From assembly GCA_029856125.1 (NCBI GenBank), contig JAHQWJ010000127.1, forward strand, positions 1 through 17,847: DNA of 17,847 bases, written 5' to 3'. The translations under genes and the position numbers were made by a program. Positions 1 to 17,847 of this stretch are shown piece by piece; position 1 is the first letter of the stretch, and each line of letters starts with the position of its first letter. The DNA is from Promethearchaeia archaeon (GTDB lineage: Archaea > Asgardarchaeota > Lokiarchaeia > Sigyniarchaeales > SOKP01). Under the pieces are notes generated by a model. It made no database searches. It was not told where the DNA came from and saw nothing but the letters and a program-made list of their open reading frames with translations.

Positions 1-1290
1 CTGTTCTTCTTGATCGACCGTTTCTTTCTGTAAACGCATAAACATTGATGTTTCATGCGGTTTTAAGTAATATAGTAGCAGAGTACTCCCTAGGAAAATA
101 ATCATTAGTATAGAGATAATGTATTTATCTGCCATGAAAAACTGTCCAAGAGGAGTAATTAACTGATTTGGAACTTGTGTCTGTAAAGCATAACGAGTAA
201 GCGTTTGAGAAAGAACGCAACCTAAAATTAAAAGTATTAGACCGTCTCTTTTAAATATAAGAAGTTTCCATTCTAGAGAGCGTCCTAATTTTTTGATGAT
301 TCTATACAAGAAATAAATAGATACGGCGAATTCGATAATAAATATAAACCATACTGTAGAACTATTCGCACCTACAGTCGCTTTAAGGGCGGTTATAGTG
401 ACTGGATTTAAAATTAAGAACAACGATAACTGAAAGACCTGAAAAAAAAATATGAATAAAACTATTAAAGAAAAAGTGTAGTTATCAAACAATCCAGCTC
501 TCTTTGTCTCGGCTCTTCGTCGTGTAAATACGAATTCAAATATGATAAATAAGAGAGTTAAAATTAAACTAACATAAATTAAAGGCATTATTAAACGCAT
601 TTCTAGTTCGTAGACTCTTACTGCTTCACTGGGAGCATAAGGACCGAAAATCTCAAGTGAAATATATACTAACAGACTGCGATAAAACAGGGCTATTACA
701 ACTAATACTCCTAAAATGAAATAAGGAGCAATAAAAGCTAAAAAACGGCGAAATGAAGAATATTTAGTTATAAACTTAGCCTCTATTTTAGTTGCAAATT
801 TTCTAGAATACATGTAAAAGCGAACGCTTAGTAAAACAAGCCAGATTGTTGACAATCCTAATAGATAGCTTATAAGATTTGTGTTTATATTGTAGATATA
901 TAGGAAGAGAATGAAGAAGCTAGAAATAATTCCAACATATAAAATAATCTGCTTAATCGCTGTATGATTTTCAAAAAAGAATATTCTAATTTTATCAACG
1001 CTATATAATATAGATAATACGAGAAAGAAAGCTACCAATGCGTTTCCAAAAACAAATGGGTTTCCAAAGGTAAGAACATTCAAATAAGTACCTGGAAAAT
1101 TAATCCCAATTAAAACTAAAAATGAATAAATTAAAAAAATCGCATAAAGTCCAAAGAATTTCTTTTCTCCAAAATATGATTTTGGAGGGTCTTCTCCTTC
1201 TACATAAAGCTCTTGTATAAACAGTTTTCGAATGTTCTTTAGAAGAGAATTTTTTATCTTTGTTAGATTTTCTTTAGGATTCATTTTCAT
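1..1290 (-). CDS. Polytopic membrane protein of unknown function (~10 TM helices), C-terminus truncated by the window edge
   Basis: Manual translation from ATG at 1290 (MKMNPKENLTKIK...) is open for 430 codons to position 1. About 10 hydrophobic segments (e.g. FFGLYAIFLIYSFLVLIGINF, LIMPLIYVSLILTLLFIIFEFVF, YIISILMIIFLGSTLLLYYL) are followed by a charged stretch (QKETVDQEEQ). Absent from the ORF track because there is no stop in the window. Confidence 0.85.
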   Translation of the reverse strand, partial: MKMNPKENLTKIKNSLLKNIRKLFIQELYVEGEDPPKSYFGEKKFFGLYAIFLIYSFLVLIGINFPGTYLNVLTFGNPFVFGNALVAFFLVLSILYSVDKIRIFFFENHTAIKQIILYVGIISSFFILFLYIYNINTNLISYLLGLSTIWLVLLSVRFYMYSRKFATKIEAKFITKYSSFRRFLAFIAPYFILGVLVVIALFYRSLLVYISLEIFGPYAPSEAVRVYELEMRLIMPLIYVSLILTLLFIIFEFVFTRRRAETKRAGLFDNYTFSLIVLFIFFFQVFQLSLFLILNPVTITALKATVGANSSTVWFIFIIEFAVSIYFLYRIIKKLGRSLEWKLLIFKRDGLILLILGCVLSQTLTRYALQTQVPNQLITPLGQFFMADKYIISILMIIFLGSTLLLYYLKPHETSMFMRLQKETVDQEEQ

Positions 1291-1435: not shown

Positions 1436-1738
1436 ATGCAAATGGATAATCCACCAGATAAACCAGATAAAGAAACATTGATAAAACTGGTCAAACAAGG
1501 CATTGAAATGTTAGCAGATAGAAACATTTCTAGTATAGTGATCTTGTCCTCCTATAAGATAAATTCCGTGCTAAAAGATAATTACGGCGTAAATATTAAA
1601 GTCGACAGAATTGGTAGAATCCTCTCATCTGTAGCTAAAAATAATCAACTTAAGAAACTTTCTACTAATATTCCCAAATATCAGCTACAAATAGCGAAAG
1701 TCGGAAGACTTGAGTATCCCGAGTTATCGTCTTCGTAA
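1436..1738 (+). CDS. Small hypothetical protein, possible winged helix-turn-helix
   Basis: 100-aa ORF filling the gap between flanking genes. The pattern helix (SYKINSVLKDNYG), turn, helix (VDRIGRILSSVAK), short hairpin (KKLSTNIPKYQL) resembles a wHTH. Fold call is by eye. Confidence 0.6.
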   Translation: MQMDNPPDKPDKETLIKLVKQGIEMLADRNISSIVILSSYKINSVLKDNYGVNIKVDRIGRILSSVAKNNQLKKLSTNIPKYQLQIAKVGRLEYPELSSS

Positions 1739-1774: not shown

Positions 1775-3160
1775 CTATTTGTTCTTAATATTTCGGAAAT
1801 CAGGAATTATTTTTTGTAATCTGTCAATTAACTTTTCAAGTTCTACAAAGTCTTCTTTACTATTATCTAATTCTGAAATCAGATTATCAAAGTTTGTAGT
1901 AATGCTAATTTCAAAGGGATGATTGATTGCACTTATTCCTTTTAAAATATCGATAGAGAGATTTTCTATCTGATTCGTTAAATTTGAGATTTGGTTTGCT
2001 GAGGAATCAATTTTTTCTCGCGTGTCTGTGTCTAATTTAGATAGTTCGTATTGTTTATTAATGGATTCATTGAGATTATCCTTTATAGATTTAGAGAATT
2101 CACCGATACTATGTTCTAAAGATTCACTAATTTCACTTTTTAATAGTTCGCTGATCTCGTGGGTATTCGATTTTAATTCTTCTTGCCCTTCAAGACGTTT
2201 TTTTACGTATCCCTCAACCTTTTCTTTGTATTCCTCTAACCTTTCTTGAAATTTTAAGTCAATCCATTTTTCTACTTTCTCGAAGCCCATATTAATTGCG
2301 CCAATCATTTCTGATAGAGAATCATTTATTTTAGAAAGTCCTATTAAAGTTCCATCATTAAATTCCGTTGACCACATTTCTAATTCGGATTGATAATTAT
2401 TTAAGACTAAGCTAGATAAATTCTGTAATCCCTTTTTAAAACCATCTATAACTGGATTAATGTTAGGGTAATTTATGTCGATTTTCGTATCAGCTTGATC
2501 GATTGACATCGGAATTTCTTGAAGATCGCCTGGAATTCCTTCAATTGTCTCTAATTTCTCACGTATTATACTTGGATCCTTCGCCTGACCATATTCAACA
2601 AGCTCTCGAACCCATCTGAAGAATTCTAGGGATTTTGGCGGCTCAACTTCGTATTTCACTCTAACTATTCCGCTTTTTTCGCCTAATTTGTGATTTTTTA
2701 ATTGATATACTTCTAATCCTAATTGATCGGCTTTTTTAAGTTTAGTGTGATCAAATACAATTCCAAATGCTAAGGGGTTTTGTTCATTTTGAAAATATAA
2801 ATGGTTTTTTTTATCAACATCTGAAAAGAAAAATGAATCACTATTAGGGTGAGAATGATACCAACCTACAACAGTAATATTTTCATCTTTAACTTCTTCT
2901 TCTATCTGTTCAAGTGCTTTATGAATCTTTTCTGAAAATCCTAATTCTACTTGATCACCGTGTGTAATAGGAATAGCTTTGATCACGTCAATATCATCGC
3001 TGTCAGGTTTTTTATTGCCCAAACAAAACCCTAAAACCTGTTCATTGTCAAAAGGAATATTTGCAAATCTTAATGCATGAGTAAGAATGTCTTTATACAC
3101 ACTCATTCGTATAAACACTTTACCGTTTTCTCTGGTTTCAATTGCGCTCTCATTCATCAC
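1775..3160 (-). CDS. MPN/JAB (Mov34) domain protein with long C-terminal helical/coiled-coil region; catalytic Glu position appears to be Gln (MPN-B)
   Basis: VVGWYHSHPNSDSFFFSDVD (H102, H104, S113, D116). QVLGFCLG aligns with the EVMG-x-x-x-G strand of Rpn11/CSN5. The last ~230 aa are L/I/E/K/S-rich and helical. Start is GTG 3160 or ATG 3157, behind GGAGGT. Confidence 0.9.
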   Translation of the reverse strand: MMNESAIETRENGKVFIRMSVYKDILTHALRFANIPFDNEQVLGFCLGNKKPDSDDIDVIKAIPITHGDQVELGFSEKIHKALEQIEEEVKDENITVVGWYHSHPNSDSFFFSDVDKKNHLYFQNEQNPLAFGIVFDHTKLKKADQLGLEVYQLKNHKLGEKSGIVRVKYEVEPPKSLEFFRWVRELVEYGQAKDPSIIREKLETIEGIPGDLQEIPMSIDQADTKIDINYPNINPVIDGFKKGLQNLSSLVLNNYQSELEMWSTEFNDGTLIGLSKINDSLSEMIGAINMGFEKVEKWIDLKFQERLEEYKEKVEGYVKKRLEGQEELKSNTHEISELLKSEISESLEHSIGEFSKSIKDNLNESINKQYELSKLDTDTREKIDSSANQISNLTNQIENLSIDILKGISAINHPFEISITTNFDNLISELDNSKEDFVELEKLIDRLQKIIPDFRNIKNK

Positions 3161-4614
3161 TATTTATTACCTCCTTGTTCAAGTTCTTTGATTTTTAATA
3201 GTAATTCTTTTTTATCAGATTCCAATTTATCGATTTTTTCAAAGATGGGCGTTTTTGTACCTTCCAAAATTAATACCGCAGCTTTTAAGTTTGTTACAAA
3301 CTTTTGAGAATTCTTTTGTATATAACTAATTGAATTTTTCATTAAGCCATGCTTCTTCGAGGTAATATCTGAAGTTTCTTTTTGCATCTTTTTAATCTTT
3401 TCGAGTGTAGCGTCTTTTATCGAATTAATTTTATCCGATAAGGTATTTAACGAATTCTCTAATTTTTCAAGATTTTCGAGATTCTTAGTTAGATTTCCAT
3501 TGAGGTTCAGTATTTTATTGTTCCATTCGTCGTAATCTTTTGAGAAATCATTTTTCAGTGCTTCAAATTTCTCTTTAAATAAAATATTTAGTTTCTTCTG
3601 AACGAATTCTTCTATCTCTCCCAATATTTTTGCTATCTCATCATGATATTCATCAATTTGATCTAGAAAGTCGTCAACATAGCCTTCTGCGTTAAATAAT
3701 TCTGAATTTAAATCGTCTTTATATTTCCTCTGAATTTTATCAATTCCAACGTTCACTAAACTTTTTAATTGAATTAAGTTATCCCTGATTTCAACATTAT
3801 TATTCTCAATTTCTCCCGAAATGTTTTTTGCTATCGAATTTAAGTAGTTAATTAAGGGTGTTAAAGATAAATCTAAAAAATTAGCAAGGCCAACTTGAAC
3901 TGTTTCAACAATTTTATGTTGATCTATTTCAGGTTGTTTAAACCTTAATTGATTCAATTCTGGGACTTGAACATCACCAAAGATATCGGCTGTTTCATTT
4001 TCTTCTATAATAGGGGGCTCATTTGAATATACACCGTTAATCAGTTCTACAAGTTTAAAATAGTATTCTAGATCGTTAGGAGGCTCAACAATTGCCTTCA
4101 CATCGTGAACGCTCGAATCCCTAATATTTGTTGGGTCAGTTAACCTAATAGCTCTAAATCCCGGATCATCTGAACGTTCCAAATATGCGTGGTCAAAAAC
4201 TAATGCTATACCGCTTGGATTCAATTCATTTTGCCAACCGAATTGATTTTTTACATCTGTAGGCGAAAAGAAAATCTTGTGCTGGAAAAGATTAGGGTGA
4301 CTATGATACCACCCTACCATAAACCAGTTTTTTTCTAAATACATCGAATTAGCTTTTTCAAAGAAAATATAATCATTTATTGAAAATTCGACTTCTACAC
4401 TACTTCCGTGAGAGATAGGTACGGAATCTTCAATTATAACATTTTTAAATTTCTTATCTTCGCTCTCTTCGTGATGTCCAATGAGCACTCCCATCACTTC
4501 TATACACTGAGAATGAATTCTCGCCTTATTTCCAAAACGTAATACATGTAACACCATTTTATAATAAGCGAGTGGTTTAATCTTAACTACACTATTGTCT
4601 ACATCTTTTCCCAA
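3160..4614 (-). CDS. MPN+/JAMM metallo-isopeptidase-like protein with long C-terminal helical/coiled-coil region (MPN-A)
   Basis: VKIKPLAYYKMVLH...IEVMGVLIG (E39) and MVGWYHSHPNLFQHKIFFSPTD (H104, H106, S117, D120) resemble Rpn11/CSN5. TTG start is preceded by SD-like GAAGTGAT. The C-terminal ~250 aa are helical. Confidence 0.92.
   Translation of the reverse strand: MGKDVDNSVVKIKPLAYYKMVLHVLRFGNKARIHSQCIEVMGVLIGHHEESEDKKFKNVIIEDSVPISHGSSVEVEFSINDYIFFEKANSMYLEKNWFMVGWYHSHPNLFQHKIFFSPTDVKNQFGWQNELNPSGIALVFDHAYLERSDDPGFRAIRLTDPTNIRDSSVHDVKAIVEPPNDLEYYFKLVELINGVYSNEPPIIEENETADIFGDVQVPELNQLRFKQPEIDQHKIVETVQVGLANFLDLSLTPLINYLNSIAKNISGEIENNNVEIRDNLIQLKSLVNVGIDKIQRKYKDDLNSELFNAEGYVDDFLDQIDEYHDEIAKILGEIEEFVQKKLNILFKEKFEALKNDFSKDYDEWNNKILNLNGNLTKNLENLEKLENSLNTLSDKINSIKDATLEKIKKMQKETSDITSKKHGLMKNSISYIQKNSQKFVTNLKAAVLILEGTKTPIFEKIDKLESDKKELLLKIKELEQGGNK
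3169..3174 (-). promoter_or_regulatory. Shine-Dalgarno GGAGGT embedded in the last codons of MPN-A (translational coupling)
   Basis: The minus strand reads CAA GGA GGT AAT AAA TAG TG ATG. The TAG stop overlaps the GTG start by 1 nt. Confidence 0.75.
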
Positions 4615-4823
4615 TTTTTATCACTTCAGCTTTTTAACAATAATAATTTTGAACAGTTAATATAAATGTATAGTGAATGATAATTTAATCGTGTTTTTTA
4701 TTTATATCTTTTTTTAGATTCTTAATTTTTAAGACAATCTTAGTCAACACCTAATTAAAAATAAGAATACTACTTCTTTTTGTAAGAAATATTAAAAGGA
4801 AATAATAGAAGAAATGATTTAAT

Positions 4824-5498
4824 TTAATGGGGTAGCGGTTTCCCGCAGTAAGGACAGAATTTCCAGTCAAGATCCTTCCCGCAACTAGGGCAAAAAGAGG
4901 ATGCTCCAGCTTTAGGTTTATCAGGTGGAATCGGGCTCCCGCTCGTTCCTTTAGGGATTGAAGGTAAACTTCTTGCAGTTTTTAGCGTCGCTGGTTCTTG
5001 TTGGCTCCCTTGAGCTCCTTTTTCCTCCTTAATATACTTCATTCTCTCTTGAAATGCTTGGCGTTTTTCGTCTTCTAATTCTTGACTTGATTTCATACCC
5101 TCTTCTTTTACCCATCCTGTTGCTGCTGGTCTTTTTATTTCGCTTTCTGGAACTTTTTCTAATTCAACTTTTTTAGCTTCAGAAATCGGGGTTGCAGCTT
5201 TTTTTTCTTCTTTTCTAGTAATAGCCTGCTTAGTTAATGCATGAGTAGTCTTCATAATTTGGTGGGGGTTTATATTTGGGATTGCTACTGTTCTCAACAC
5301 CCATCCAACTATGAGATTTTGGTTAGGAAAACCAGAAGCGCTCATATCCTCATCTTTAAAAACATAGGAATCAATAACATCTTTACCTTTTAGTAAACGG
5401 ACAGCCCATTTACCGTTTATAAGCCCTAATTGAATTCTATACGAAGTTCCAGAAATTCCTAGTTGACTACTTAGAGGTTCAAATCCTTTTTCAGAAAT
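4824..5498 (-). CDS. Protein with N-terminal globular domain, low-complexity linker and C-terminal zinc ribbon; start probably upstream of the track's ATG 5345
   Basis: C-terminus FCPSCGKDLDWKFCPYCGKPL (two CxxC). The middle is E/K/P/A/S-rich. The frame stays open 55 codons upstream of ATG 5345, to 5510, with protein-like sequence. The ATT start at 5498 is inferred; the CDS itself is well supported. Confidence 0.75.
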   Translation of the reverse strand: MSEKGFEPLSSQLGISGTSYRIQLGLINGKWAVRLLKGKDVIDSYVFKDEDMSASGFPNQNLIVGWVLRTVAIPNINPHQIMKTTHALTKQAITRKEEKKAATPISEAKKVELEKVPESEIKRPAATGWVKEEGMKSSQELEDEKRQAFQERMKYIKEEKGAQGSQQEPATLKTARSLPSIPKGTSGSPIPPDKPKAGASSFCPSCGKDLDWKFCPYCGKPLPH

Positions 5499-5730
5499 AA
5501 TTACATCAGCTCAATTTATTATAAAGTCTAATTAATTGGAATCAAATCTTATTTGTTGAAATTATAATATTATCATAATTTTCGAGTTTAAATAACTTTT
5601 TATTTGGTTGAAAAAAAAAAGATTTTTTTGGGGTTTAATCACTTTCAATGAAAAATAAAATCTAAAAAAATAGACATAAATATGAGATCTTGTATAAGCT
5701 TATCAAAAAAGAAATCATACAATTAAAAAT

Positions 5731-6693
5731 ATGACTGTACTTATTCCCAAAAACGTTTATTTGACCATCGTTGCAGCATGTGTTAGGTATGCTAATAAAC
5801 GAATTGTTAAAGACGATTGGCTTGAGGTTTCTGGTATATTTATTGGAAGAAATGAAGGAAACGACGTATATATTACAAAATCATATCCAATAATGCATCA
5901 AAAACAACAAGAACAGCAAGAGAGCGTAATTGATCAATACAAGTGGTCTAAAGAAGATTATGAAGCTCTCTCTATTATTGATGACGAAGCCTTTTCAAAT
6001 GGTGAATTTACAGTAGGATGGTGGCATAGCCATCCTGGATTCAAGGTAATGATGTCCCATATTGATATCAAAACTACTCTGAGTTATCAAACTAATAATC
6101 CTCTCGCCGTTTCATTAGTATTTAATCCTGAAAGGTTAGTGAGACAAATTGAGCTTGCTGAAAAGAAAGGTGATCCGGTAAAACAACTTGAGGGCGATCC
6201 TGGATTTAAAATATTCAGACTAGATGACGTAAATAGAGGAATTCAAGCTTCTTATCACACTGCAGATTATATCATTAAAGGTTTTGATACTCCGGAACAA
6301 ATGGTAATGTTAACTCAGAAATTCTTAATTGATATTACTAACATGTTCCCAAAAGACAATTTATTTGAAACTTATGAAAAGTTCGTAAATAACAAAATTA
6401 ATGAGTTGAATTCACTTTTACAAGGTGTAGATGAATATCTATCTACTTTAACTCGAAAGGGAGAATCCCATAGAATACATGAAGTCCTTACTAATCAAAC
6501 TAGAGATATTAGAAAATTTATAGCTGAATCTTTCATTAAAATTGAGAATATTAGACAATTCATGAACTATCTAGAATACAAAGAAAGATCTACCATTGTT
6601 CCTAAAGTTGAAATAATTTTGGCTGAGTGGGACAGCACTGTTTCTCAATTAAACGCAAAACTCACAGCAATTACCAAAAAATATGCATTTTGA
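5731..6693 (+). CDS. MPN+/JAMM metallo-isopeptidase-like protein with shorter helical C-terminus (MPN-C)
   Basis: LEVSGIFIG (E32) and TVGWWHSHPGFKVMMSHID give a canonical E...H-x-H-x7-S-x2-D (H99, H101, S109, D112). About 130 aa of helical tail follow. Confidence 0.92.
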   Translation: MTVLIPKNVYLTIVAACVRYANKRIVKDDWLEVSGIFIGRNEGNDVYITKSYPIMHQKQQEQQESVIDQYKWSKEDYEALSIIDDEAFSNGEFTVGWWHSHPGFKVMMSHIDIKTTLSYQTNNPLAVSLVFNPERLVRQIELAEKKGDPVKQLEGDPGFKIFRLDDVNRGIQASYHTADYIIKGFDTPEQMVMLTQKFLIDITNMFPKDNLFETYEKFVNNKINELNSLLQGVDEYLSTLTRKGESHRIHEVLTNQTRDIRKFIAESFIKIENIRQFMNYLEYKERSTIVPKVEIILAEWDSTVSQLNAKLTAITKKYAF

Positions 6694-6822: not shown

Positions 6823-9030
6823 ATGCGTAAAGTTCAATTTCCTTTTGTTGCTGTTTTAGGGCAAGAAAGAATGAAGCTCGGTCTTATTTTAAACGTTATC
6901 GATCCTCAAATTGGTGGAGTATTATTAACTGGACAACAGGGGACAGGTAAATCTACGGGAGTACGGTCTCTTGTAGAAGTGATGCCTAACATTGAAGTTG
7001 TTAAAGATTGTCAATTTTCTTGCGATCCTAAATCTCATATAGATGATCTCTGTGAAGAATGCCGCGTTAGAAAAGAAAATGGGGAGTTGGAAACGGAGTC
7101 TAAAGATATGCGACTAATTAACTTACCATTGGGAGTTACAGAAGATATGGTAACAGGTTCTCTTTCAATTGATAAGGTCTTAACCGAAGGAATCAGGAGT
7201 CTTCACCCTGGACTTCTCGCTAAGGCTAATCGTGGTATCCTTTATATTGATGAGATAAATTTGCTCCAAGATCATATAGTCGATACCTTACTAGATGCTT
7301 CTGCTTCTGGTGTGAATATTATTGAAAGAGAAGGTATTTCGGTTATGCATCCTTCTCGGTTTATATTAGTCGGTTCGATGAATCCCGAGGAAGGCGATCT
7401 TCGCCCACAAATAGCTGACAGACTCGGTTTAGAGGTAAAAATAAAAGCACCAAGGGATGCAAAGCTACGCGCTGAAATTACGAAGAGAGTGATTGATTTT
7501 GATGATAATCCTAAAGCATTCATAAAAAAATACGAGCAAGAGCAAGAAGAATTAAGAAAAAAAATCGTAAAGGCGCGTGAATTAATTAAAGATGTCAAAA
7601 TTCCATCATCGGTTTACGAATTTGTATCTAGGTTAGTTAACGAATTGGATATTTTTTCGCAGAGAGCAGACATTACGTTTATTCGGTGTGCTAGATCTCA
7701 CGCTGCTTTTAGTGGAAGAACCGAAGTTGTGGAAGAAGATTTAAACGCTGCAATGGATTTAGTTTTCGAGCACAGAATCAAGTCGCTTCATTACGAAATG
7801 ACGCCAGAAGAAGTTAAAGCTAAAATTGTTGAAGTATACGGAAAGATTCAAAAAGCGTACGAAGATCCAAAAACTTACCGGCCAAATAAAGATACCGAGG
7901 GACCTTTAAAACACGATGATACACCTCAAAAAGAATTTAAACGTCAATCAGTTGATCCTAAAAAAGTTGATATCCCGGAAACAAAAGAACAGAAGTTACC
8001 TGCACCCAAATACCCAGATAATAAGAAAAGAAACCCTTCGCCTGCTGGTGGATGGAAAGTAAAAGATATTCCAGAATACGACGAACGCGAATTCAATTTC
8101 TTTGAGAATGGGGTTGATTCATTGCCATTAATTTATCAGATGGAAACCAAAATGACTTCCGTTTTGGATACCATCAGAAAAGATCGAAAAGTTTCCGATT
8201 ATGGCGGTAGAGGGATTGGAAGACGCATAAAAATCGCTTCTTCTCAAAAAGGTCGGTATGTATCGTATAGAAGACCGATCAATCGACCCAAAACTATTGC
8301 TCTCGACGCAACCATCCGGAATTATTTAAAAAATACTATATACAATCAAACAGATATTGAATTTCCAATTAAATTTGACAAGTACGATCTAATGGATAAA
8401 ATTTACGAGTATCGAGCTCCTTTAGTACTATTCTTTGTTCTCGATTCTTCAGCTTCGATGTATTATGTAATCAATCAAATGACAAATGTTATTCTTTCCC
8501 TCCAGCGAGAAGGTTACAGAAAAAAGGATAAGTTAAGTTTGATTATTTTTAGAGCGAAAGAAGCAGTTGTTCTTCAGAAACCTACTGTGTATTTTAAATC
8601 TGCTGTAAACAAACTCAAAAAAGTCCAAGGAAAATCCTATACTCCTATGGCCGCAGCTTTGACAAAATGCTTAAAATTAATTGTCGCTGAAAAACTAAAG
8701 AATAGAAACATAATTCCGGTCGTTTTCGTTTGTAGCGATTTAGGAGCAAATATTTCCTACAAATACCCAGATTTAATCGCTCAGGTTCAATCAGATTACA
8801 CTCTAGTCGTTAACGAATTAAAAGCTCTAACAAAACAACTATCGAAAAAAGGAGCGCATATGGTGGTGTTAGAGCCTAAGAAATCTTACGCTACTAGAGC
8901 ATTGGGTGTTAATACATTTGCGGCTAACAAAATAAAAAAGAATTTTAAAAAGTATGGAAACGCTGAGGTATTTCAATTCGATCGCGTAAATCCCAAAAAC
9001 TTAATTCTCGAACTGAAAAAAATACTTTAA
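6823..9030 (+). CDS. Magnesium/cobalt chelatase I/D-family AAA+ ATPase with C-terminal vWA domain
   Basis: FPFVAVLGQERMKLGLILNVIDPQIGGVLL, Walker A GQQGTGKST (6931-6957), Walker B ILYIDE and EREGIS...HPSRFILVGSMNPEEGDLRPQ are ChlI/BchI signatures. A Pro/charged linker follows, then the vWA MIDAS motif DSSAS (8443-8457) with TP and SD elements. Confidence 0.93.
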   Translation: MRKVQFPFVAVLGQERMKLGLILNVIDPQIGGVLLTGQQGTGKSTGVRSLVEVMPNIEVVKDCQFSCDPKSHIDDLCEECRVRKENGELETESKDMRLINLPLGVTEDMVTGSLSIDKVLTEGIRSLHPGLLAKANRGILYIDEINLLQDHIVDTLLDASASGVNIIEREGISVMHPSRFILVGSMNPEEGDLRPQIADRLGLEVKIKAPRDAKLRAEITKRVIDFDDNPKAFIKKYEQEQEELRKKIVKARELIKDVKIPSSVYEFVSRLVNELDIFSQRADITFIRCARSHAAFSGRTEVVEEDLNAAMDLVFEHRIKSLHYEMTPEEVKAKIVEVYGKIQKAYEDPKTYRPNKDTEGPLKHDDTPQKEFKRQSVDPKKVDIPETKEQKLPAPKYPDNKKRNPSPAGGWKVKDIPEYDEREFNFFENGVDSLPLIYQMETKMTSVLDTIRKDRKVSDYGGRGIGRRIKIASSQKGRYVSYRRPINRPKTIALDATIRNYLKNTIYNQTDIEFPIKFDKYDLMDKIYEYRAPLVLFFVLDSSASMYYVINQMTNVILSLQREGYRKKDKLSLIIFRAKEAVVLQKPTVYFKSAVNKLKKVQGKSYTPMAAALTKCLKLIVAEKLKNRNIIPVVFVCSDLGANISYKYPDLIAQVQSDYTLVVNELKALTKQLSKKGAHMVVLEPKKSYATRALGVNTFAANKIKKNFKKYGNAEVFQFDRVNPKNLILELKKIL

Positions 9031-10330: not shown

Positions 10331-11080
10331 TTATTGTTTAATAATCGTTTTGATTTTTGCTATATAGCTTCTGAGGATTTTCTCGTCTCCTTCGGCCACA
10401 GCGATTGCGAGTATCCTCCTCTCATCTAATTCGTGGATAATAATCGAACCGTGATCTCCTCCAATTATCGAGAATTCTAAACCTCCATCCAATAAGACTC
10501 CTGCTAAATTATAAATAGCGGAGATCATTGCGGATATAGTTGGTTCTGGCATAGTAGATTGAACTTTAATAGGTAAGCCATCTTTGGTGATGATGGCAAT
10601 CACTAGAGCATTAGGGATTGCTCTTTTAAGAGCCACAAAGATTTCTTCCTTGATAAGATCACTCGTCTCAATAATTGCTGACATTTTTATAGCGAACTTT
10701 CTTAGTGATCGTATGTAAAAATCTAACCCTTCAAGTTCAGCTAATTCTCTATCTAAATAGGCGATTAGGGCCATATAATCAGTAAGGATTGATAAAATAA
10801 TTCTTTCTTTCCCTGTTATTAAAGTATAAGCGATTTTTTGGTTTAGTGAATCGTGTAACATTTTAGAAGATAAGAAAACTAAACTACTACTCGCTGCAGA
10901 AATTTCAGTTTTAGTCATTACTATGTCTTCTTTTAATTCACTTACAATAGGTGTACCATCATGAGAGGAAATGGAAATACCTAGAAGGCTTTCTTGATCT
11001 TTGATTTCTTTTTTTAATAATTCTGATAATTCTTGATTTAGTAGTTCTATATTGACTTCCTTAGACATAGAAATCTTCAA
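10331..11080 (-). CDS. Tandem (double) Roadblock/LC7 domain protein
   Basis: Two copies of the Roadblock pattern: ISISSHDGTPIVS...ISAASSSL and IAIITKDGLPIKV...ISAMISAI...IIGGDHGSIIIHEL. Start is TTG 11080 or ATG 11068. Confidence 0.85.
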   Translation of the reverse strand: MKISMSKEVNIELLNQELSELLKKEIKDQESLLGISISSHDGTPIVSELKEDIVMTKTEISAASSSLVFLSSKMLHDSLNQKIAYTLITGKERIILSILTDYMALIAYLDRELAELEGLDFYIRSLRKFAIKMSAIIETSDLIKEEIFVALKRAIPNALVIAIITKDGLPIKVQSTMPEPTISAMISAIYNLAGVLLDGGLEFSIIGGDHGSIIIHELDERRILAIAVAEGDEKILRSYIAKIKTIIKQ

Positions 11081-11142
11081 ATTCTTTAAGTTTTAAATAT
11101 TAACATTATAGTAAAATGAATCAAATTTAAACATATACTTTT

Positions 11143-11970
11143 ATGAAACTCAGAAATAATGCCTATGTAATAATATTGGCAGCGGGAAAAGCGACGAGGC
11201 TGAGACCATTATCTGATCAAATTCCCAAACCACTAATCAAAATCAATGGAATTCCGATGATTACTCGTATTGTATCTAACTTTAAACAGGCAGGCTATAG
11301 TAAATTTATTGTATTAGTAGGGTATAAACAAGAGTTAATTAGAGCAGAACTATTAAAAATTCAAGATATTGAATTACAAATCATTGGGCAGGTTAAACAA
11401 GTGGGATCAGCTGACGCCCTCTTGCTTTGCCTTGACCAATTTAATGATCTCAAATCTTCGGGATTAACATTTTTTGTAACTGCAGCAGATATTATCTTTT
11501 TCAAAAAAGAATTCAATTTAATGCATTTATTATATCATAATTCTAAGGCAGATATAATCTTGAGTTTGATTAAATCAAAAGATCAAGACATTGCTCGCGG
11601 ACACGGAAATGTCAAAATTTCTAAGAATTCAGATATTATTAACGATTCAGATTCAAAACTAGGATTAGAAATTACAGACATTATAGAAAAACCAAGAAAA
11701 GATCAAATTTTAAGCGATTATTACTCGTTTCCGCTCTATATTTTCAATCAAACAATTATTAAATATTTAACAGATATTGATATATCTACTCGGGGAGAGG
11801 TTGAGATTCAAGGTGCAATTAAGAAATCTATTCTGAATGGATATCGAGTGAAAGGTATAAAAATAATTGATCCGGATATAACATTTGAGAACGTAGGCAG
11901 ATATCATATAACCTACTTAAATGATATAGAAAAAATGAATGAAAGATTTCGAGAAATTGAAAGTAGATAA
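11143..11970 (+). CDS. Sugar-phosphate nucleotidyltransferase (NTP_transferase, RmlA/GlmU-N-like), no LbH domain
   Basis: ILAAGKATRLRPLSDQIPKPL signature; IIEKP; STRGEVEI, which resembles RmlA SxRGELEI. Substrate is not assignable. Confidence 0.88.
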   Translation: MKLRNNAYVIILAAGKATRLRPLSDQIPKPLIKINGIPMITRIVSNFKQAGYSKFIVLVGYKQELIRAELLKIQDIELQIIGQVKQVGSADALLLCLDQFNDLKSSGLTFFVTAADIIFFKKEFNLMHLLYHNSKADIILSLIKSKDQDIARGHGNVKISKNSDIINDSDSKLGLEITDIIEKPRKDQILSDYYSFPLYIFNQTIIKYLTDIDISTRGEVEIQGAIKKSILNGYRVKGIKIIDPDITFENVGRYHITYLNDIEKMNERFREIESR

Positions 11971-12126
11971 AAATTTAAGTGGATTGATTCTATTAAGTAA
12001 GTTTCTCTATTCAAATTCCCTTCTCTTAAATGGAATAAAAATAGCGATTACCTAAGAATTAAAAAGGATTTATTTTATTATATTTCTTAATATATAAAGA
12101 AAATTCAAGTTTTTTGGGATCTAAAA

Positions 12127-13017
12127 ATGGAAGAAGACGACAGGGACAGAATTATTCGTGAATTACGGGAAGAATTGAAAAAAGTTATTAAAAAATTCGA
12201 GAATTACAACATTATAATAAAGAGCAAAGAGGACCTTATAAATAATTTAACCAGATCTTTGGACTTAAAAGAAGATCAGATCAAAACAATGATAGACTCT
12301 ATGAATTTAAAAGAACAGCACAACGACACGTTAAATACTTCATTGCAAATAAAGAACGAGAAAATTAAAGATTTGGAAAAGAATATTAGATCTCTAAATG
12401 AAGAAATTAACCTATTAAAATCCTCTACTGTTGATAAAGATATTATTGCTGAGAAAGAAAGTGATTTAGAAGAATGTCAGAATAAACTGGTCATTTTAAA
12501 GGGAGAGTTAGAAAAACAAGAAGAAGATCTTGATTTGTTAGATGCAGAAAACGAAAAATTAAGAAATGACCTTGCTTCGAGTTCAGACCCTCAAATCGTT
12601 GATTGGACGCATGTAGAAATTCCTAAAGAATCTATATTAAAAAAAATTCGAAAGATTCTCTCTAAAGCTGTTCATAACGTAACTATTGCCGTCCCCGACA
12701 TTAAAGATTTACAAGATCTGCACTTATATGAAGTACGGTCTTCTGTAAATATGAAAATTATGTGTTATATCGATCCCAGTCTTGAGGATGACGAACAACT
12801 TTTGATGGAGTTTGAAAGTTTGGACAATATCTCAATTCGGCTATACGAAGATCGAGATAGATACTTAATCGATCGCGACGGGGAGGAACTTTTGTTTGGA
12901 ATAATTGGAGAAGGAGAGAATAACAATTTAATAATTCACACTCAAGATGCGAAGCATCAAAGATTACTACGAAGTCTCGTTATGGAAGGATGGCTACGAG
13001 CAAGAAAATTAGATTGA
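12127..13017 (+). CDS. Coiled-coil protein with C-terminal TrmB-effector/PLD-like alpha/beta domain lacking HKD
   Basis: Residues 1-150 are heptad-rich. Residues ~165-296 (IRKILSKAVHNVTIAVP...ISIRLY...LIDRDGEELLF...EGWLRARKL) follow the TrmB-C/PLD-fold pattern by eye, with no HxKxxxxD motif. Confidence 0.7.
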   Translation: MEEDDRDRIIRELREELKKVIKKFENYNIIIKSKEDLINNLTRSLDLKEDQIKTMIDSMNLKEQHNDTLNTSLQIKNEKIKDLEKNIRSLNEEINLLKSSTVDKDIIAEKESDLEECQNKLVILKGELEKQEEDLDLLDAENEKLRNDLASSSDPQIVDWTHVEIPKESILKKIRKILSKAVHNVTIAVPDIKDLQDLHLYEVRSSVNMKIMCYIDPSLEDDEQLLMEFESLDNISIRLYEDRDRYLIDRDGEELLFGIIGEGENNNLIIHTQDAKHQRLLRSLVMEGWLRARKLD

Positions 13018-14160: not shown

Positions 14161-17100
14161 ATGGGTGAGAATAAGTTGAGTACTATAAAAAAATCAAATT
14201 TAAATATTAATGATCTATTCAAATCAGATGAAAAAATAACCTTCTTAGTTGGAGCTGGAGCTTCAGTTGATTCTCCATCCCAATTACCTTCAGCTAGTAA
14301 TATAATGAAAGCACTAATTAAATTCACATGTACGAAATCTGAGGTTGAAAAAATCGTAAACACTCAAGGTTTAAACTTTGAAACTTTATTAGGAATAATA
14401 CATAACTCGCTCAATGATGATTTACAATTTTTAGATTTTTATTTGGAAATCAACAAGCCTAATATCCAACATTTTGTTTTAAGTGAAATGCTCCAAAAAG
14501 GACATTATGTTATAACTACAAACTTTGATTTTTTAATAGAGCACGCTCTACTTCAGACAGACTATCCTAAAAAAAAAATAGTCCCAGTTATTACTGAAAA
14601 AGATTACCAAAAGTTCAGTGATCCAGAGAAGTTGTATAAAAATAAAAAAATTCCAATTTACAAACTTCACAGCTCTCCTAAAAATATTATCACCGGAGAA
14701 GATACCCGTAATTCTTTTATTAACACCTTAAAGCTAATTGGATCAAATCGAGATAAAAACAATATCATTCAATTAGAGCCGTTCAAAGCTCAAATGTTTG
14801 AACAGATTTCAAATGAACGATCCCTGATAATTATTGGTTACTCGGGTAAAAATGATTACGATCTTATTTCAACTCTTAAGACTATGAGGGGATTGAAAAA
14901 CTTGATTTGGATTAATCATATTGTCAATGGTGAACCAAAGGGGGTCCTATATGAATATAGCAAACCAAGGAGCATGGATTTAAGCAATTTAGATGGTTTA
15001 GATCAGCACCTTACAGAAATTAAAAGATTAAATGAATCCGTTAATGTATTTCGGTTAAATACTTATACACCTAAATTTCTTGAGAATCTTTTAGATAAAA
15101 AAGAGAAAATCAGTAAAGAAAAATTTGAATTGAATTTAGGCGATTGGCTTAAGGATAAACTTAATGAACCATCTGAATTAACCAAACTTTTTATTTCTAA
15201 TAAGATTTATTCTGAAACCAAGAATTACGTCGACGCTCTCAGGTGTTTGGAAAGCTTATATAGGTTAAGTGACGAATCTGGAGATAGTCATTGGAAAGCA
15301 ATATCTCTAATGGAAATGGGGATTGTTAACTATAAACAATCCAAATACGGTGACGCATTAGATCAGCTACGTAAATCTCTACAAGTTCAAATTAAATCGA
15401 AATTAATGCCGGAACGAGCTTTGATTTTTAAATACATAGGTCTTTCGCATCAAGCACTTAGAGAATATTCAGATGCTATAAAAAATTTTGAGTTCGCACT
15501 GAAAGAAAATGAAAAAATTAAAGACTTTCAACAAAAGTCGGATGTATACAACAATCTAGGCGTACTTTATCAAGAACAACATAAGTATAAAGACGCTTTG
15601 ATGTATTTCGAATCAGCAATAAAAATTAACGAGAGATTCGAAAATCTTAGTAAGAAAGCGTTAAATTTAAAGCTTAAAGGGAGAGTCTATCATTCAAAAA
15701 AAAATTTTAGCGAAGCTTTAAAGAACCTTCAAATTGCATTAAAAATTTCCGAACAATTAGAAGATCTCGAGCAAAAAGCAGAGATTTTGAATATTATTGG
15801 ACGAATAACTCATGAATTTGGAGACTCTCTAACTGGATTGGAGAAATGTAATGAATCACTTAATCTTTACAATCTTTTGGGGGGAATTGAAGGAACACTA
15901 GATGCTTTAAACACTATAGGAATCATATATAGGGATCAATGGAATTACTCCAAAGCTTTTGATTACTTTGAAGAGGGATTTCAAACTGCCGAGAATTTAG
16001 GAAATATTCAATTAAAGGCCAGATTTTCGCGCCAATTAGGGATGATTTTTCAGAATCAGAATAAGTATTTTGAAGCACTTAAATGGTTTGAAGATTCTTT
16101 AAACTTTTATAAGCAGATTGGTGTAATTAGAGGAGAGGTTGATGTTCTTATAAATATGGGGTTAATATACAAGGAACAAAAAACTTATTTAAAAGCGTTA
16201 AAGAATTTTGGGAAAGCTCTGGAAATTTATGATCAATTAGAAGATTTAAACAATAAGGCATCCACTTTGAATATTCTTGGACGGATATATCTTGATCAAA
16301 GAAAATTCTCAGAAGCATTTAAAAACTTCCAGGAGGCTCTTCAGCTTTACGGGGAAACTGATAATCCTGAGGGGACAGTTGAGACTTTAAAAAACATTGG
16401 GAACCTCTATGCTGAACAAGCTAATTTTCAAGAGGCACTAAACAGATATAAAGATGCTCTAGAAATTATTAAAGGCATTGGAAAAACAGAAAAAAAAGCT
16501 GATCTTCTAAACAGGCTAGGATTGATTTTTCAAGATCAGGGGGACTATCCTCAAGCTAAACAGAAATTCGAAGAAGCATTAAATCTCTATAGAAAACAGA
16601 ACAATATGGAAGGACAAATTGAAAGTCTTCATTTAATTGGAATAAATTATCATTATGTAGAAGAAAATGATATAGCTTTAAAGACATTTGAAGAAGCTAT
16701 AAATATCGCTGAACAAATCGGTAACTTACATAAGAAAGCAATGTGCTTAAACATAACTGGTAAGATCTATCGAGAACAATGGAATCTCGTAGAGGCTTTA
16801 AAGCGCTACGAAGAGGCTCTATCGATTGCAGAACAACTAGGGCATTTAGAAGAACAAGTTGAAATTCTTAGCGTGATCGGAGAAATTTATCAAGCTCAGA
16901 AGCATTATCCAGAAGCAGTAAGGAGATATAACGAAGCAATATATGTCGCAGAAAGTTTAGGAAACCTTGAAATTAAAGCCGATATCTTTACGAGCATAGG
17001 GGATATCTATTACGATGAGGATAATTATCTTGAAGCCTTAAACTTATACGAAGAAGCTTTAAATATCGACGATCAACTTGGAAATATGAAGGGCAAGGCG

Positions 17101-17847
17101 TATAGGCTACTTTGCATTGGAAAGATATTTTTTATCCGTAATAAATACAATGAAACATTGGATAGATACAAAGAAGCTCTAGAGCTTGAGGAACAATTAG
17201 GTAATCTTACAAACCAAGCGGTTATGATACGAATGATTGGAGATATTTTTAAAGCTCAAGAGCATTTTCAAGAAGCATTAAAATGGTATCAAGATGCATA
17301 CAAGCTTTTTGAAGAAATTGAAAACTTGGAAGGAATTGCAGATTGCTTTGAGAGTATTGGATTAGTGTATCAAGAATTAGGTAATTATCCTGAAGCATTA
17401 AAGTGGAATAGTGAAGCACTTAAATTATCAGATCAAATTTATGACGACGAGAGGAAAGCTCGAATTTTATGCAGTATAGGCGCACTCTTTCATAAACAAG
17501 GTGTATATAAAGATGCCTTTAAACGTTATAATATTGCCCTCAACATATTTGATAGAATAGGAGACTTAATAGGGAAAACATATTGTTTAAATAAGGTAGG
17601 TCTTGTATACCAAGATAGAGGGGATTATACGGAAGCTCTTAAATGGTACGATCGAGGAACAAAACTTTTTAAAGTATTAGGACCTTCAAAAGAAAGAGCA
17701 GAGAATTTGTATAATACAGCAATGATCTATAGGGATCAAGGATTATATCTTGACGCTTTGAAAACCTTTGAAGAATCTCTCAATATTGATAATGAGCTTA
17801 AAAATTTCACCAGAAAAGCAGAAAGTCTTAATAACATTGGATTAATT
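14161..17847 (+). CDS. Large SIR2-like (SIR2_2) domain + tetratricopeptide-repeat protein, C-terminus truncated by the window edge
   Basis: Frame open from ATG 14161 (or TTG 14176 behind GGTGAG) to the window end, 1229 codons. Motifs: TFLVGAGAS (GAGAS at 14251-14265), TTNFD (14515-14529), YKLHSS (to 14676), IIGYSG (GYSG at 14836-14847), LIWINH, then TPR repeats. Not in the ORF track. Confidence 0.92.
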   Translation, partial: MGENKLSTIKKSNLNINDLFKSDEKITFLVGAGASVDSPSQLPSASNIMKALIKFTCTKSEVEKIVNTQGLNFETLLGIIHNSLNDDLQFLDFYLEINKPNIQHFVLSEMLQKGHYVITTNFDFLIEHALLQTDYPKKKIVPVITEKDYQKFSDPEKLYKNKKIPIYKLHSSPKNIITGEDTRNSFINTLKLIGSNRDKNNIIQLEPFKAQMFEQISNERSLIIIGYSGKNDYDLISTLKTMRGLKNLIWINHIVNGEPKGVLYEYSKPRSMDLSNLDGLDQHLTEIKRLNESVNVFRLNTYTPKFLENLLDKKEKISKEKFELNLGDWLKDKLNEPSELTKLFISNKIYSETKNYVDALRCLESLYRLSDESGDSHWKAISLMEMGIVNYKQSKYGDALDQLRKSLQVQIKSKLMPERALIFKYIGLSHQALREYSDAIKNFEFALKENEKIKDFQQKSDVYNNLGVLYQEQHKYKDALMYFESAIKINERFENLSKKALNLKLKGRVYHSKKNFSEALKNLQIALKISEQLEDLEQKAEILNIIGRITHEFGDSLTGLEKCNESLNLYNLLGGIEGTLDALNTIGIIYRDQWNYSKAFDYFEEGFQTAENLGNIQLKARFSRQLGMIFQNQNKYFEALKWFEDSLNFYKQIGVIRGEVDVLINMGLIYKEQKTYLKALKNFGKALEIYDQLEDLNNKASTLNILGRIYLDQRKFSEAFKNFQEALQLYGETDNPEGTVETLKNIGNLYAEQANFQEALNRYKDALEIIKGIGKTEKKADLLNRLGLIFQDQGDYPQAKQKFEEALNLYRKQNNMEGQIESLHLIGINYHYVEENDIALKTFEEAINIAEQIGNLHKKAMCLNITGKIYREQWNLVEALKRYEEALSIAEQLGHLEEQVEILSVIGEIYQAQKHYPEAVRRYNEAIYVAESLGNLEIKADIFTSIGDIYYDEDNYLEALNLYEEALNIDDQLGNMKGKAYRLLCIGKIFFIRNKYNETLDRYKEALELEEQLGNLTNQAVMIRMIGDIFKAQEHFQEALKWYQDAYKLFEEIENLEGIADCFESIGLVYQELGNYPEALKWNSEALKLSDQIYDDERKARILCSIGALFHKQGVYKDAFKRYNIALNIFDRIGDLIGKTYCLNKVGLVYQDRGDYTEALKWYDRGTKLFKVLGPSKERAENLYNTAMIYRDQGLYLDALKTFEESLNIDNELKNFTRKAESLNNIGLI
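15181..17847 (+). repeat. Coding array of at least 22 TPR-like units at an exact 120-nt (40-aa) period
   Basis: Consensus xxLNxIGxIYxxQxxYxEAL-xxYEEALxIxEQLGxxxxKA. The (E/D)AL-like motif recurs every 120 nt from 15232 to 17760 without indels. Units are divergent at DNA level. Confidence 0.9.

Follow-up and report, generated by a model that had tools for sequence, protein, structure and literature searches.

What does a genome gain from keeping a protease gene beside a copy of it that has lost the catalytic residue? The question is raised by MPN-A and MPN-B (hereafter A and B), two adjacent genes for JAMM-type proteins in a 17,847-nucleotide stretch of DNA from a Promethearchaeia archaeon of the Lokiarchaeia (the window; positions 1 to 17,847 of contig JAHQWJ010000127.1, assembly GCA_029856125.1). 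We find that the active site of A is invariant across orthologous pairs, that B has been damaged repeatedly and is nonetheless held by purifying selection, and that the two are sister paralogues with long helical tails of the same kind. We favor a reading, which we rate a little better than even, in which A and B form a stalked heterodimer where A cleaves ubiquitin-like conjugates and B serves as a zinc-holding, non-cleaving partner.

Two paralogous MPN genes with unequal active sites

The gene pair and its active-site residues lie in the window as follows.

3160..4614, minus strand: MPN-A gene, TTG start, 484 amino acids, Pfam JAB match at 9e-14
within 3160..4614, minus strand: parts of A, namely the MPN/JAMM domain (residues ~9-196), then a linker, then a long C-terminal helix
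4498..4500, minus strand: codon GAA, catalytic Glu39 of A (EVMG), invariant in the A-family alignment
1775..3157, minus strand: MPN-B gene from the conserved ATG (460 amino acids), or 1775..3160 from a GTG (461 amino acids), Pfam JAB match at 2e-11
within 1775..3157, minus strand: parts of B, namely the MPN domain, then a linker, then a long helix
3038..3040, minus strand: codon CAG, the Gln in the catalytic-Glu column of B (QVLG), from the multiple alignment
3041..3043, minus strand: Glu codon (E40) just before the Gln codon of B
2813..2857, minus strand: zinc-ligand motif of B, H102-x-H104-x8-S113-x2-D116 (GTG numbering)
3169..3174, minus strand: GGAGGT, a Shine-Dalgarno-like element in the last codons of A, serving B

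A is an MPN-fold protein by its Pfam JAB match, which lies above the cut-off, and by structure-model and structure-atlas matches, and its active site is intact (E39, H104, H106, S117 and D120), with all five residues invariant in the A-family alignment. Apart from the spacing of His to Ser it has the E...HxH-x7-S-x2-D motif; for that spacing A has x10 and B x8, against the canonical x7 of most A orthologues, and the insertions are specific to the source clade. In the multiple alignment, Q41 of B falls opposite E39 of A, three residues ahead of the conserved Gly, so that B lacks the Glu whose presence at this place marks a JAMM (MPN+) protein and which acts as the general base of JAMM catalysis (PMC9313428). 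A first-pass annotation of this DNA had read E39 (EVMG) in A against Q41 (QVLG, codon CAG at 3040-3038) with H-H-S-D retained in B, and both sequence and alignment agree. Because all zinc ligands (H, H and D) are kept, source-clade B is, as judged from its residues, not a formal MPN-, a class defined by the absence of zinc-coordinating residues (PMC4579573). The source genome has six JAB genes, of which B alone is without the Glu. The S-loop insertions of A (+3; 4257-4305) and B (+1; 2813-2857) and the Gln of B all map to one long branch.

The two genes are whole-gene paralogues, as had been proposed: BLASTP aligns them at 29% over 420 columns (E 2e-36), a span that covers both motif pairs cited earlier for this relationship. 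The 1-nt overlap that had been described between them probably does not hold up. The stop codon of A (TAG, 3162-3160) has one G in common with GTG 3160, and the genes overlap only if B starts at this GTG; five close orthologues lack a GTG at this place, their junction being TAG-AG-ATG or TAG-AA-ATG, and ATG 3157, 2 nt beyond the stop of A, is the start common to all five. Full-length database relatives of B are nearly all 459-460 amino acids. The true geometry, by this comparison, is probably a start at ATG 3157 with a 2-nt gap, under which Q41 and E40 of the GTG numbering (kept below) become Q40 and E39. The GGAGGT element was located as claimed, at 3174-3169 inside the end of A, and it is preserved in the source clade, with GGAG or GGGG variants in many relatives. 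Tight coupling of A and B is likely despite the unconserved overlap. Coupling is common without being obligatory, four genes standing between A and B in one genome (G174). RNA data from four runs, which may include DNA, gave short scattered contigs of which none spans the A-B junction, and a scan for sigma-70 promoters and terminators, with models unsuited to archaea, came out at chance level.

The upstream copy is invariant and the downstream copy repeatedly damaged

Our orthologue set comprises 66 distinct tandem A/B pairs, with a complete A copy in 63. E-H-H-S-D is intact in every complete A copy (63/63). Downstream, 51 of the 66 B copies are lesioned, and the other 15 carry the full motif (12 with S, 3 with T). 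The type of lesion goes by clade and includes E>Q, E>N, E>A, H1>I/L/V/S/C/T, H2>R and D>T/G/E/N. The Glu is lost with H-H-D retained in 18 B copies, and zinc-coordinating residues are lost in 33 of the 66, which are MPN- by definition. We considered Glu>Gln as a family-wide B lesion and rejected it. The first-pass annotation had called for an alignment of B orthologues and had held that Glu at this site would speak against its proposal; Glu is present in 40 of the 66, and 25 of those are without a His or the Asp.

On the tree of concatenated A/B pairs, Gln arose at four places, lesioned B copies are scattered among intact ones, and several early-branching B copies are intact. By our own count on this tree, parsimony with regain takes 5 changes, the Glu column by itself takes 7, and without regain no fewer than 8 separate losses are required. 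The I/L-S-R-P...T motif occurs at two tree positions; a single clade is not rejected (approximately unbiased test, p-AU 0.135), and the two groups were entered once. B copies at loci L063, L065, L070 and L078 are only ~38% identical to those at L075, L077 and L079, and the two groups carry a near-identical rewritten motif round the former zinc site, which may reflect convergence or recombination.

Further relatives accompany the pair in some genomes. G051 (L049) and G053 (L050) each have a second A/B-type pair in which both tails are shorter and B is strongly degraded, in addition to a first pair with both genes intact. Directly upstream of A in G051 stands a fully degenerate MPN gene of 251 amino acids (Y-K-I-R-D at the motif columns; L044:2084-2839, plus strand), which makes a three-gene run. 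In G209, a single short-tailed relative of 288 amino acids with an intact motif (L138:4597-5463) lies away from a fully intact A-B pair.

Selection on B and the glutamine site of the source clade

In 20 of 21 comparisons, which are not mutually independent, the ratio of nonsynonymous to synonymous substitution rates (dN/dS) of B is 0.12-0.26, lesioned lineages included; the remaining, higher value has very low dS. B is under purifying selection and is not a pseudogene, being retained despite its catalytic lesions. In the MPN domain, dN is higher in B than in A in 18 of the 21 comparisons. With A intact throughout and B mostly lesioned, these values bear out the view of B as a catalytically impaired partner of A.

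The source clade holds its site with particular constancy. Among 91 database proteins with pairwise identity down to 56%, Gln is found in 90 and H-H-S-D in all 91, and 98% conservation is attained by no more than 49 of the 189 domain columns. Given how few columns are so conserved, this near-invariance suggests that the Gln-plus-zinc state is selected rather than transient, as would suit a site that holds zinc and does not cleave. We read the site as one that may bind without cleavage because Glu-less BRCC36(E30A) still binds diubiquitin with a Kd of 2.4 uM (PMC4579573). It had been cautioned that E40, next to Q41, could compensate for the lost Glu. Rescue appears unlikely because the acid is Asp in 34 of the 91 proteins, and because human BRCC36, where E32 adjoins E33, is inactive as E33A (PMC13462971); the register of E40 and Q41 here is that of the alignment plus the BRCC36 precedent.

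A and B are sisters within one order

In the A/B tree, for which five catalytic columns were set to be dropped and which has an imperfect root and no eukaryotic rows, the A copies group together (98/98), as do the B copies (97/98), and the two clades are sisters (96/92). Together they sit in a Loki/Hel-type expansion, separate from both the JAMM of the ubiquitin operon and the Caldiarchaeum Rpn11-type branch. Nearly every sampled genome of the family (44 of 45) has a full-length relative of B, and two further families of the order have it patchily; outside this Lokiarchaeia order the 201 genomes searched gave none, and the single-contig genomes G044, G050 and G055 have no A/B pair. Profile matches of B are to Rpn11 (3e-13), BRCC36 (2e-12) and Rpn8 (5e-4), and no eukaryotic C-terminal Pfam domain, BRCC36_C and Abraxas-type families included, is among the matches listed for 37 B and 34 A members.

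Read from these trees, the A/B asymmetry arose after an order-level duplication and independently of eukaryotes. Because A and B are sisters confined to one Lokiarchaeia order and basal B is intact, we see convergence here and not the origin of Rpn8, CSN6 or Abraxas. The first-pass annotation had allowed for an independent or an early origin of the MPN+/MPN- division; the trees favor the independent one, and the sister clades, the intact basal B and a profile nearer Rpn11 tell against the early one. KIAA0157 has the substitutions E>N, H>R and S>T (PMC4579573), and we likewise read the lesions it has in common with B orthologues (H2>R, E>N, S>T) as convergence.

Helical tails and a modeled complex

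The tails occupy these positions.

3172..3885, minus strand: continuous helix of A, residues 244-481 (AlphaFold2; hydrophobic period from 3.67 to 3.6)
1784..2458, minus strand: continuous helix of B, residues 234-458 of 460 (AlphaFold2; period from 3.68 to 3.57)

For A and B alike, the AlphaFold2 model consists of an MPN head, a linker of poor confidence and a single continuous helix (mean predicted local distance difference test, pLDDT, 72 and 73; predicted template modeling score, pTM, 0.42 and 0.45). The fold of B matches chains of Rpn11, BRCC36 and CSN5, the Rpn11 chains best. Both tails are ~230 residues long and 11/3-periodic with a period profile common to the two, and tail segments of 208 amino acids in A and 174 in B are nearly free of indels across ~60 genomes. 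In the second pair of G051 and G053, both tails are ~100 residues shorter. Helices of such length would, on these models, need a partner. A structure-atlas feature search with the B tail returned no usable match.

A model of the full-length A:B complex scored 0.51 against 0.00 for the best control, with a partner pLDDT of at least 62 and contact agreement between runs of at least 29%. The modeling covered the A:B pair and yields a score without an interface. Among reference pairs, 58 of 80 solved ones and 2 of 110 mismatched ones reach the mark for a complex; between the mark and 0.60 lie only 7 solved pairs and both mismatched ones. The model lends weak support to a heterodimer, which the first-pass annotation had proposed with 1:1 stoichiometry.

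A proposed mechanism and its rivals

We propose that a long-tailed JAMM protease gene was duplicated once in tandem, in the ancestor of one Lokiarchaeia order, and that both copies were active at first. The MPN heads of A and B would pack together as a heterodimer, and their ~230-residue 11/3 helices would pair along their length as a coiled-coil stalk about 33-35 nm long. A would contribute the zinc isopeptidase site, with ubiquitin-like conjugates as its probable substrate, which we infer because the source genome has ubiquitin (Ub)-like, E1 and E2 genes, which stand together on contig C65 with a JAMM of their own (C65:19505-20335). The Ub-like genes of the genome include C65:17280-17609, C145:1752-2084 and one on C56. 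B would be retained for its fold and stalk, so that its catalytic residues could be lost many times; the source clade would show the mildest loss, from Glu to Gln with the zinc ligands all fixed. The zinc-holding site of B probably binds substrate without cleavage, and may serve as a scaffold, a second binding site or an allosteric activator. A bolder version, which we advance tentatively and regard as doubtful, makes the pair an obligate archaeal JAMM heterodimer with a ~34-nm stalk, arranges the B copies as a stepwise pseudo-enzyme series (both active; Glu lost and zinc kept; zinc ligands lost; site erased), and takes the Gln/zinc site of the source clade for a substrate trap that feeds or activates A.

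Several observations weigh against the stalked heterodimer. A complex score of 0.51 falls in a range that is, without a prior, more often wrong than right, and it may be due to the likeness of A and B to solved MPN-MPN dimers. Inactivity of B is not required, 15 of 66 copies being intact. The pair lies outside the ubiquitin operon, which has a separate JAMM. In G174 (L137), A and B are ~6 kb apart with four genes inserted (frames 3494-4828 and 10866-12284), and its B has kept the Glu and lost His1 and Asp. In the source clade, the residue before the Gln is acidic in all 91 members (57 Glu, 34 Asp), and one member, P0091, which is 81% identical to B, has Glu again at the catalytic column.

The split in G174 would fit a reading in which B is a selected non-catalytic paralogue and A and B work in separate homo-oligomers or in a larger assembly, their adjacency reflecting the tandem duplication and no more. 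Either tail could form a homo-coiled coil, and archaeal JAMM dimers can be crystal artefacts, CsRpn11 being monomeric in solution (PMC6043591). We consider this unlikely given that adjacency is maintained across three families and down to ~25% identity, that the tails of A and B are shortened jointly in the second pair, and that the heterodimer score, weak as it is, exceeds that of every control. The conserved acid bears on another reading, in which source-clade B is still an enzyme whose zinc water is activated by this acid or by a residue from A; the invariance of H-H-S-D, the S-loop insertions in both proteins on the same branch and the member that regained Glu are all in its favor. Yet the acid has switched between Glu and Asp (3 changes), as have six other columns (seven in all), it is absent from the other Gln lineages of B, E32 does not rescue BRCC36 E33A, and sister lineages have lost zinc ligands outright, which makes a catalytic B rather improbable.

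A mainly structural pair, with its amphipathic 11/3 tails as a tether, filament or lipid-binding element and A processing a substrate not of the ubiquitin-like (Ubl) kind, would suit tails that make up half of each protein with a period of 3.67. It would also suit the weak apolipoprotein-family matches of 21 of 37 B and 4 of 34 A members, and the lack of ubiquitin genes among the conserved neighbors of A-B at 41 loci. We hold it improbable, as amphipathic helices in general draw such matches, every one of the closest solved relatives is a Ub/Ubl isopeptidase, and Ub-like, E1 and E2 genes are present in the genome. That the pair is the ancestor of eukaryotic MPN+/MPN- heterodimers might be argued from its Asgard host, its same design and the substitutions found also in KIAA0157; we give this next to no weight, with A and B placed, in a tree without eukaryotic rows, as sisters in the Loki/Hel expansion away from the Caldiarchaeum branch, basal B intact, no full-length relative outside the order in the 201 sampled genomes, a profile nearer MPN+ than Rpn8 and no eukaryotic C-terminal Pfam domain among the matches listed. 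Neutral decay of a redundant duplicate would account for the faster evolution of B and its accumulating lesions, and earns hardly any credence beside dN/dS well under 1, full-length frames, a fixed tail length and the occurrence of B in all but one of 45 genomes sampled from the family.

Neighboring genes

The surroundings of the pair, with conservation counted over 41 loci, are as follows.

1..1290, minus strand: multi-pass membrane protein downstream of B, no Pfam match, conserved in 30-31 of 41 loci
1436..1738, plus strand: 100-amino-acid protein downstream of B, no Pfam match, conserved in 30-31 of 41 loci
4824..5510, minus strand: upstream neighbor with a C-terminal zinc ribbon, conserved in 30 of 41 loci
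5731..6693, plus strand: MPN-C, a third MPN gene with intact motif, divergently transcribed and of another subfamily, conserved in 25 of 41 loci
6823..9030, plus strand: chelatase-type AAA+ protein with a von Willebrand factor A (vWA) domain, after MPN-C, in 22 of 41 loci
14161..17847, plus strand: large TPR protein, SIR2-like in its N-terminal domain (Pfam SIR2_2), running off the contig

The frame of the zinc-ribbon gene is open and conserved for ~55 codons above ATG 5345, with no ATG, GTG or TTG there, which suggests a non-standard start near 5500. MPN-C is fused into a 1008-amino-acid frame at L086 and split just past the HxH motif at L066, L075 and L078; its subfamily is present in the cultured strain MK-D1, where the A-B pair is absent. 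Neither MPN-C nor the helical tails of A and B figured in the title of the first-pass annotation. The SIR2_2/TPR protein is possibly a defence-type sensor or effector.

Comparison with known systems and significance

Like A and B, BRCC36-Abraxas and BRCC36-KIAA0157 (ABRO1), the cores of BRCA1-A and BRISC, combine an active MPN protein with an impaired paralogue and MPN heads with C-terminal helices, and the substitutions of KIAA0157 (E>N, H>R and S>T; PMC4579573) recur among B orthologues. The A/B tails are ~230-residue helices whereas BRCC36-Abraxas has a short bundle, and source-clade B has all the zinc ligands that KIAA0157 is without, the two being of separate origin. BRCA1-A and BRISC have BRE (UEV) and MERIT40 (vWA) as partners and are K63-specific; near A/B, the chelatase-type AAA-vWA gene is a conserved neighbor. 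Rpn11-Rpn8, CSN5-CSN6 and eIF3h-eIF3f have the fold and the logic of active and inactive paralogues in common with A/B. B is more like MPN+ proteins than Rpn8, however, and as a sister to A, in a tree without eukaryotes, it is not orthologous to Rpn8, CSN6 or eIF3f. Inactivation is ancient and fixed in these PCI complexes, whereas in B it is recent, repeated and incomplete. Of the six PCI partner subunits known from lid, CSN and eIF3 the source genome shows no gene cluster, its PCI-profile matches being just three short ones spread over two unlinked genes. The best sequence match among solved structures is CsRpn11 of Caldiarchaeum subterraneum (PDB 6FJU/6FJV), an archaeal Rpn11-like JAMM that is a short monomer encoded in a ubiquitin operon (PMC6043591); A and B are of another subfamily and are not encoded with Ub, E1 and E2. 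The A/B pair would work like BRCC36-KIAA0157, but outside that family and outside the PCI complexes.

According to Fuchs et al. 2018, an active/inactive MPN heterodimer was not known in archaea (PMC6043591). We found no later literature that describes one, and two recent Asgard structure surveys make no mention of MPN/JAB. Nor did the literature searched yield a source on E>D or E>Q mutants of JAMM proteins or on Prp8. Our results call for caution in treating Asgard MPN pairs as forerunners of the proteasome lid. Eukaryotic MPN- subunits are so ancient that they no longer reveal the route by which activity was lost; within the B family, copies that are intact, that have lost the Glu only, that have lost zinc ligands or whose site is fully erased all stand beside an invariant A. 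If A and B bind, it would be directly testable whether heterodimerization preceded inactivation, and the pair would make testable the allosteric control of A by asymmetry and the pseudo-deubiquitinase functions kept at each step.

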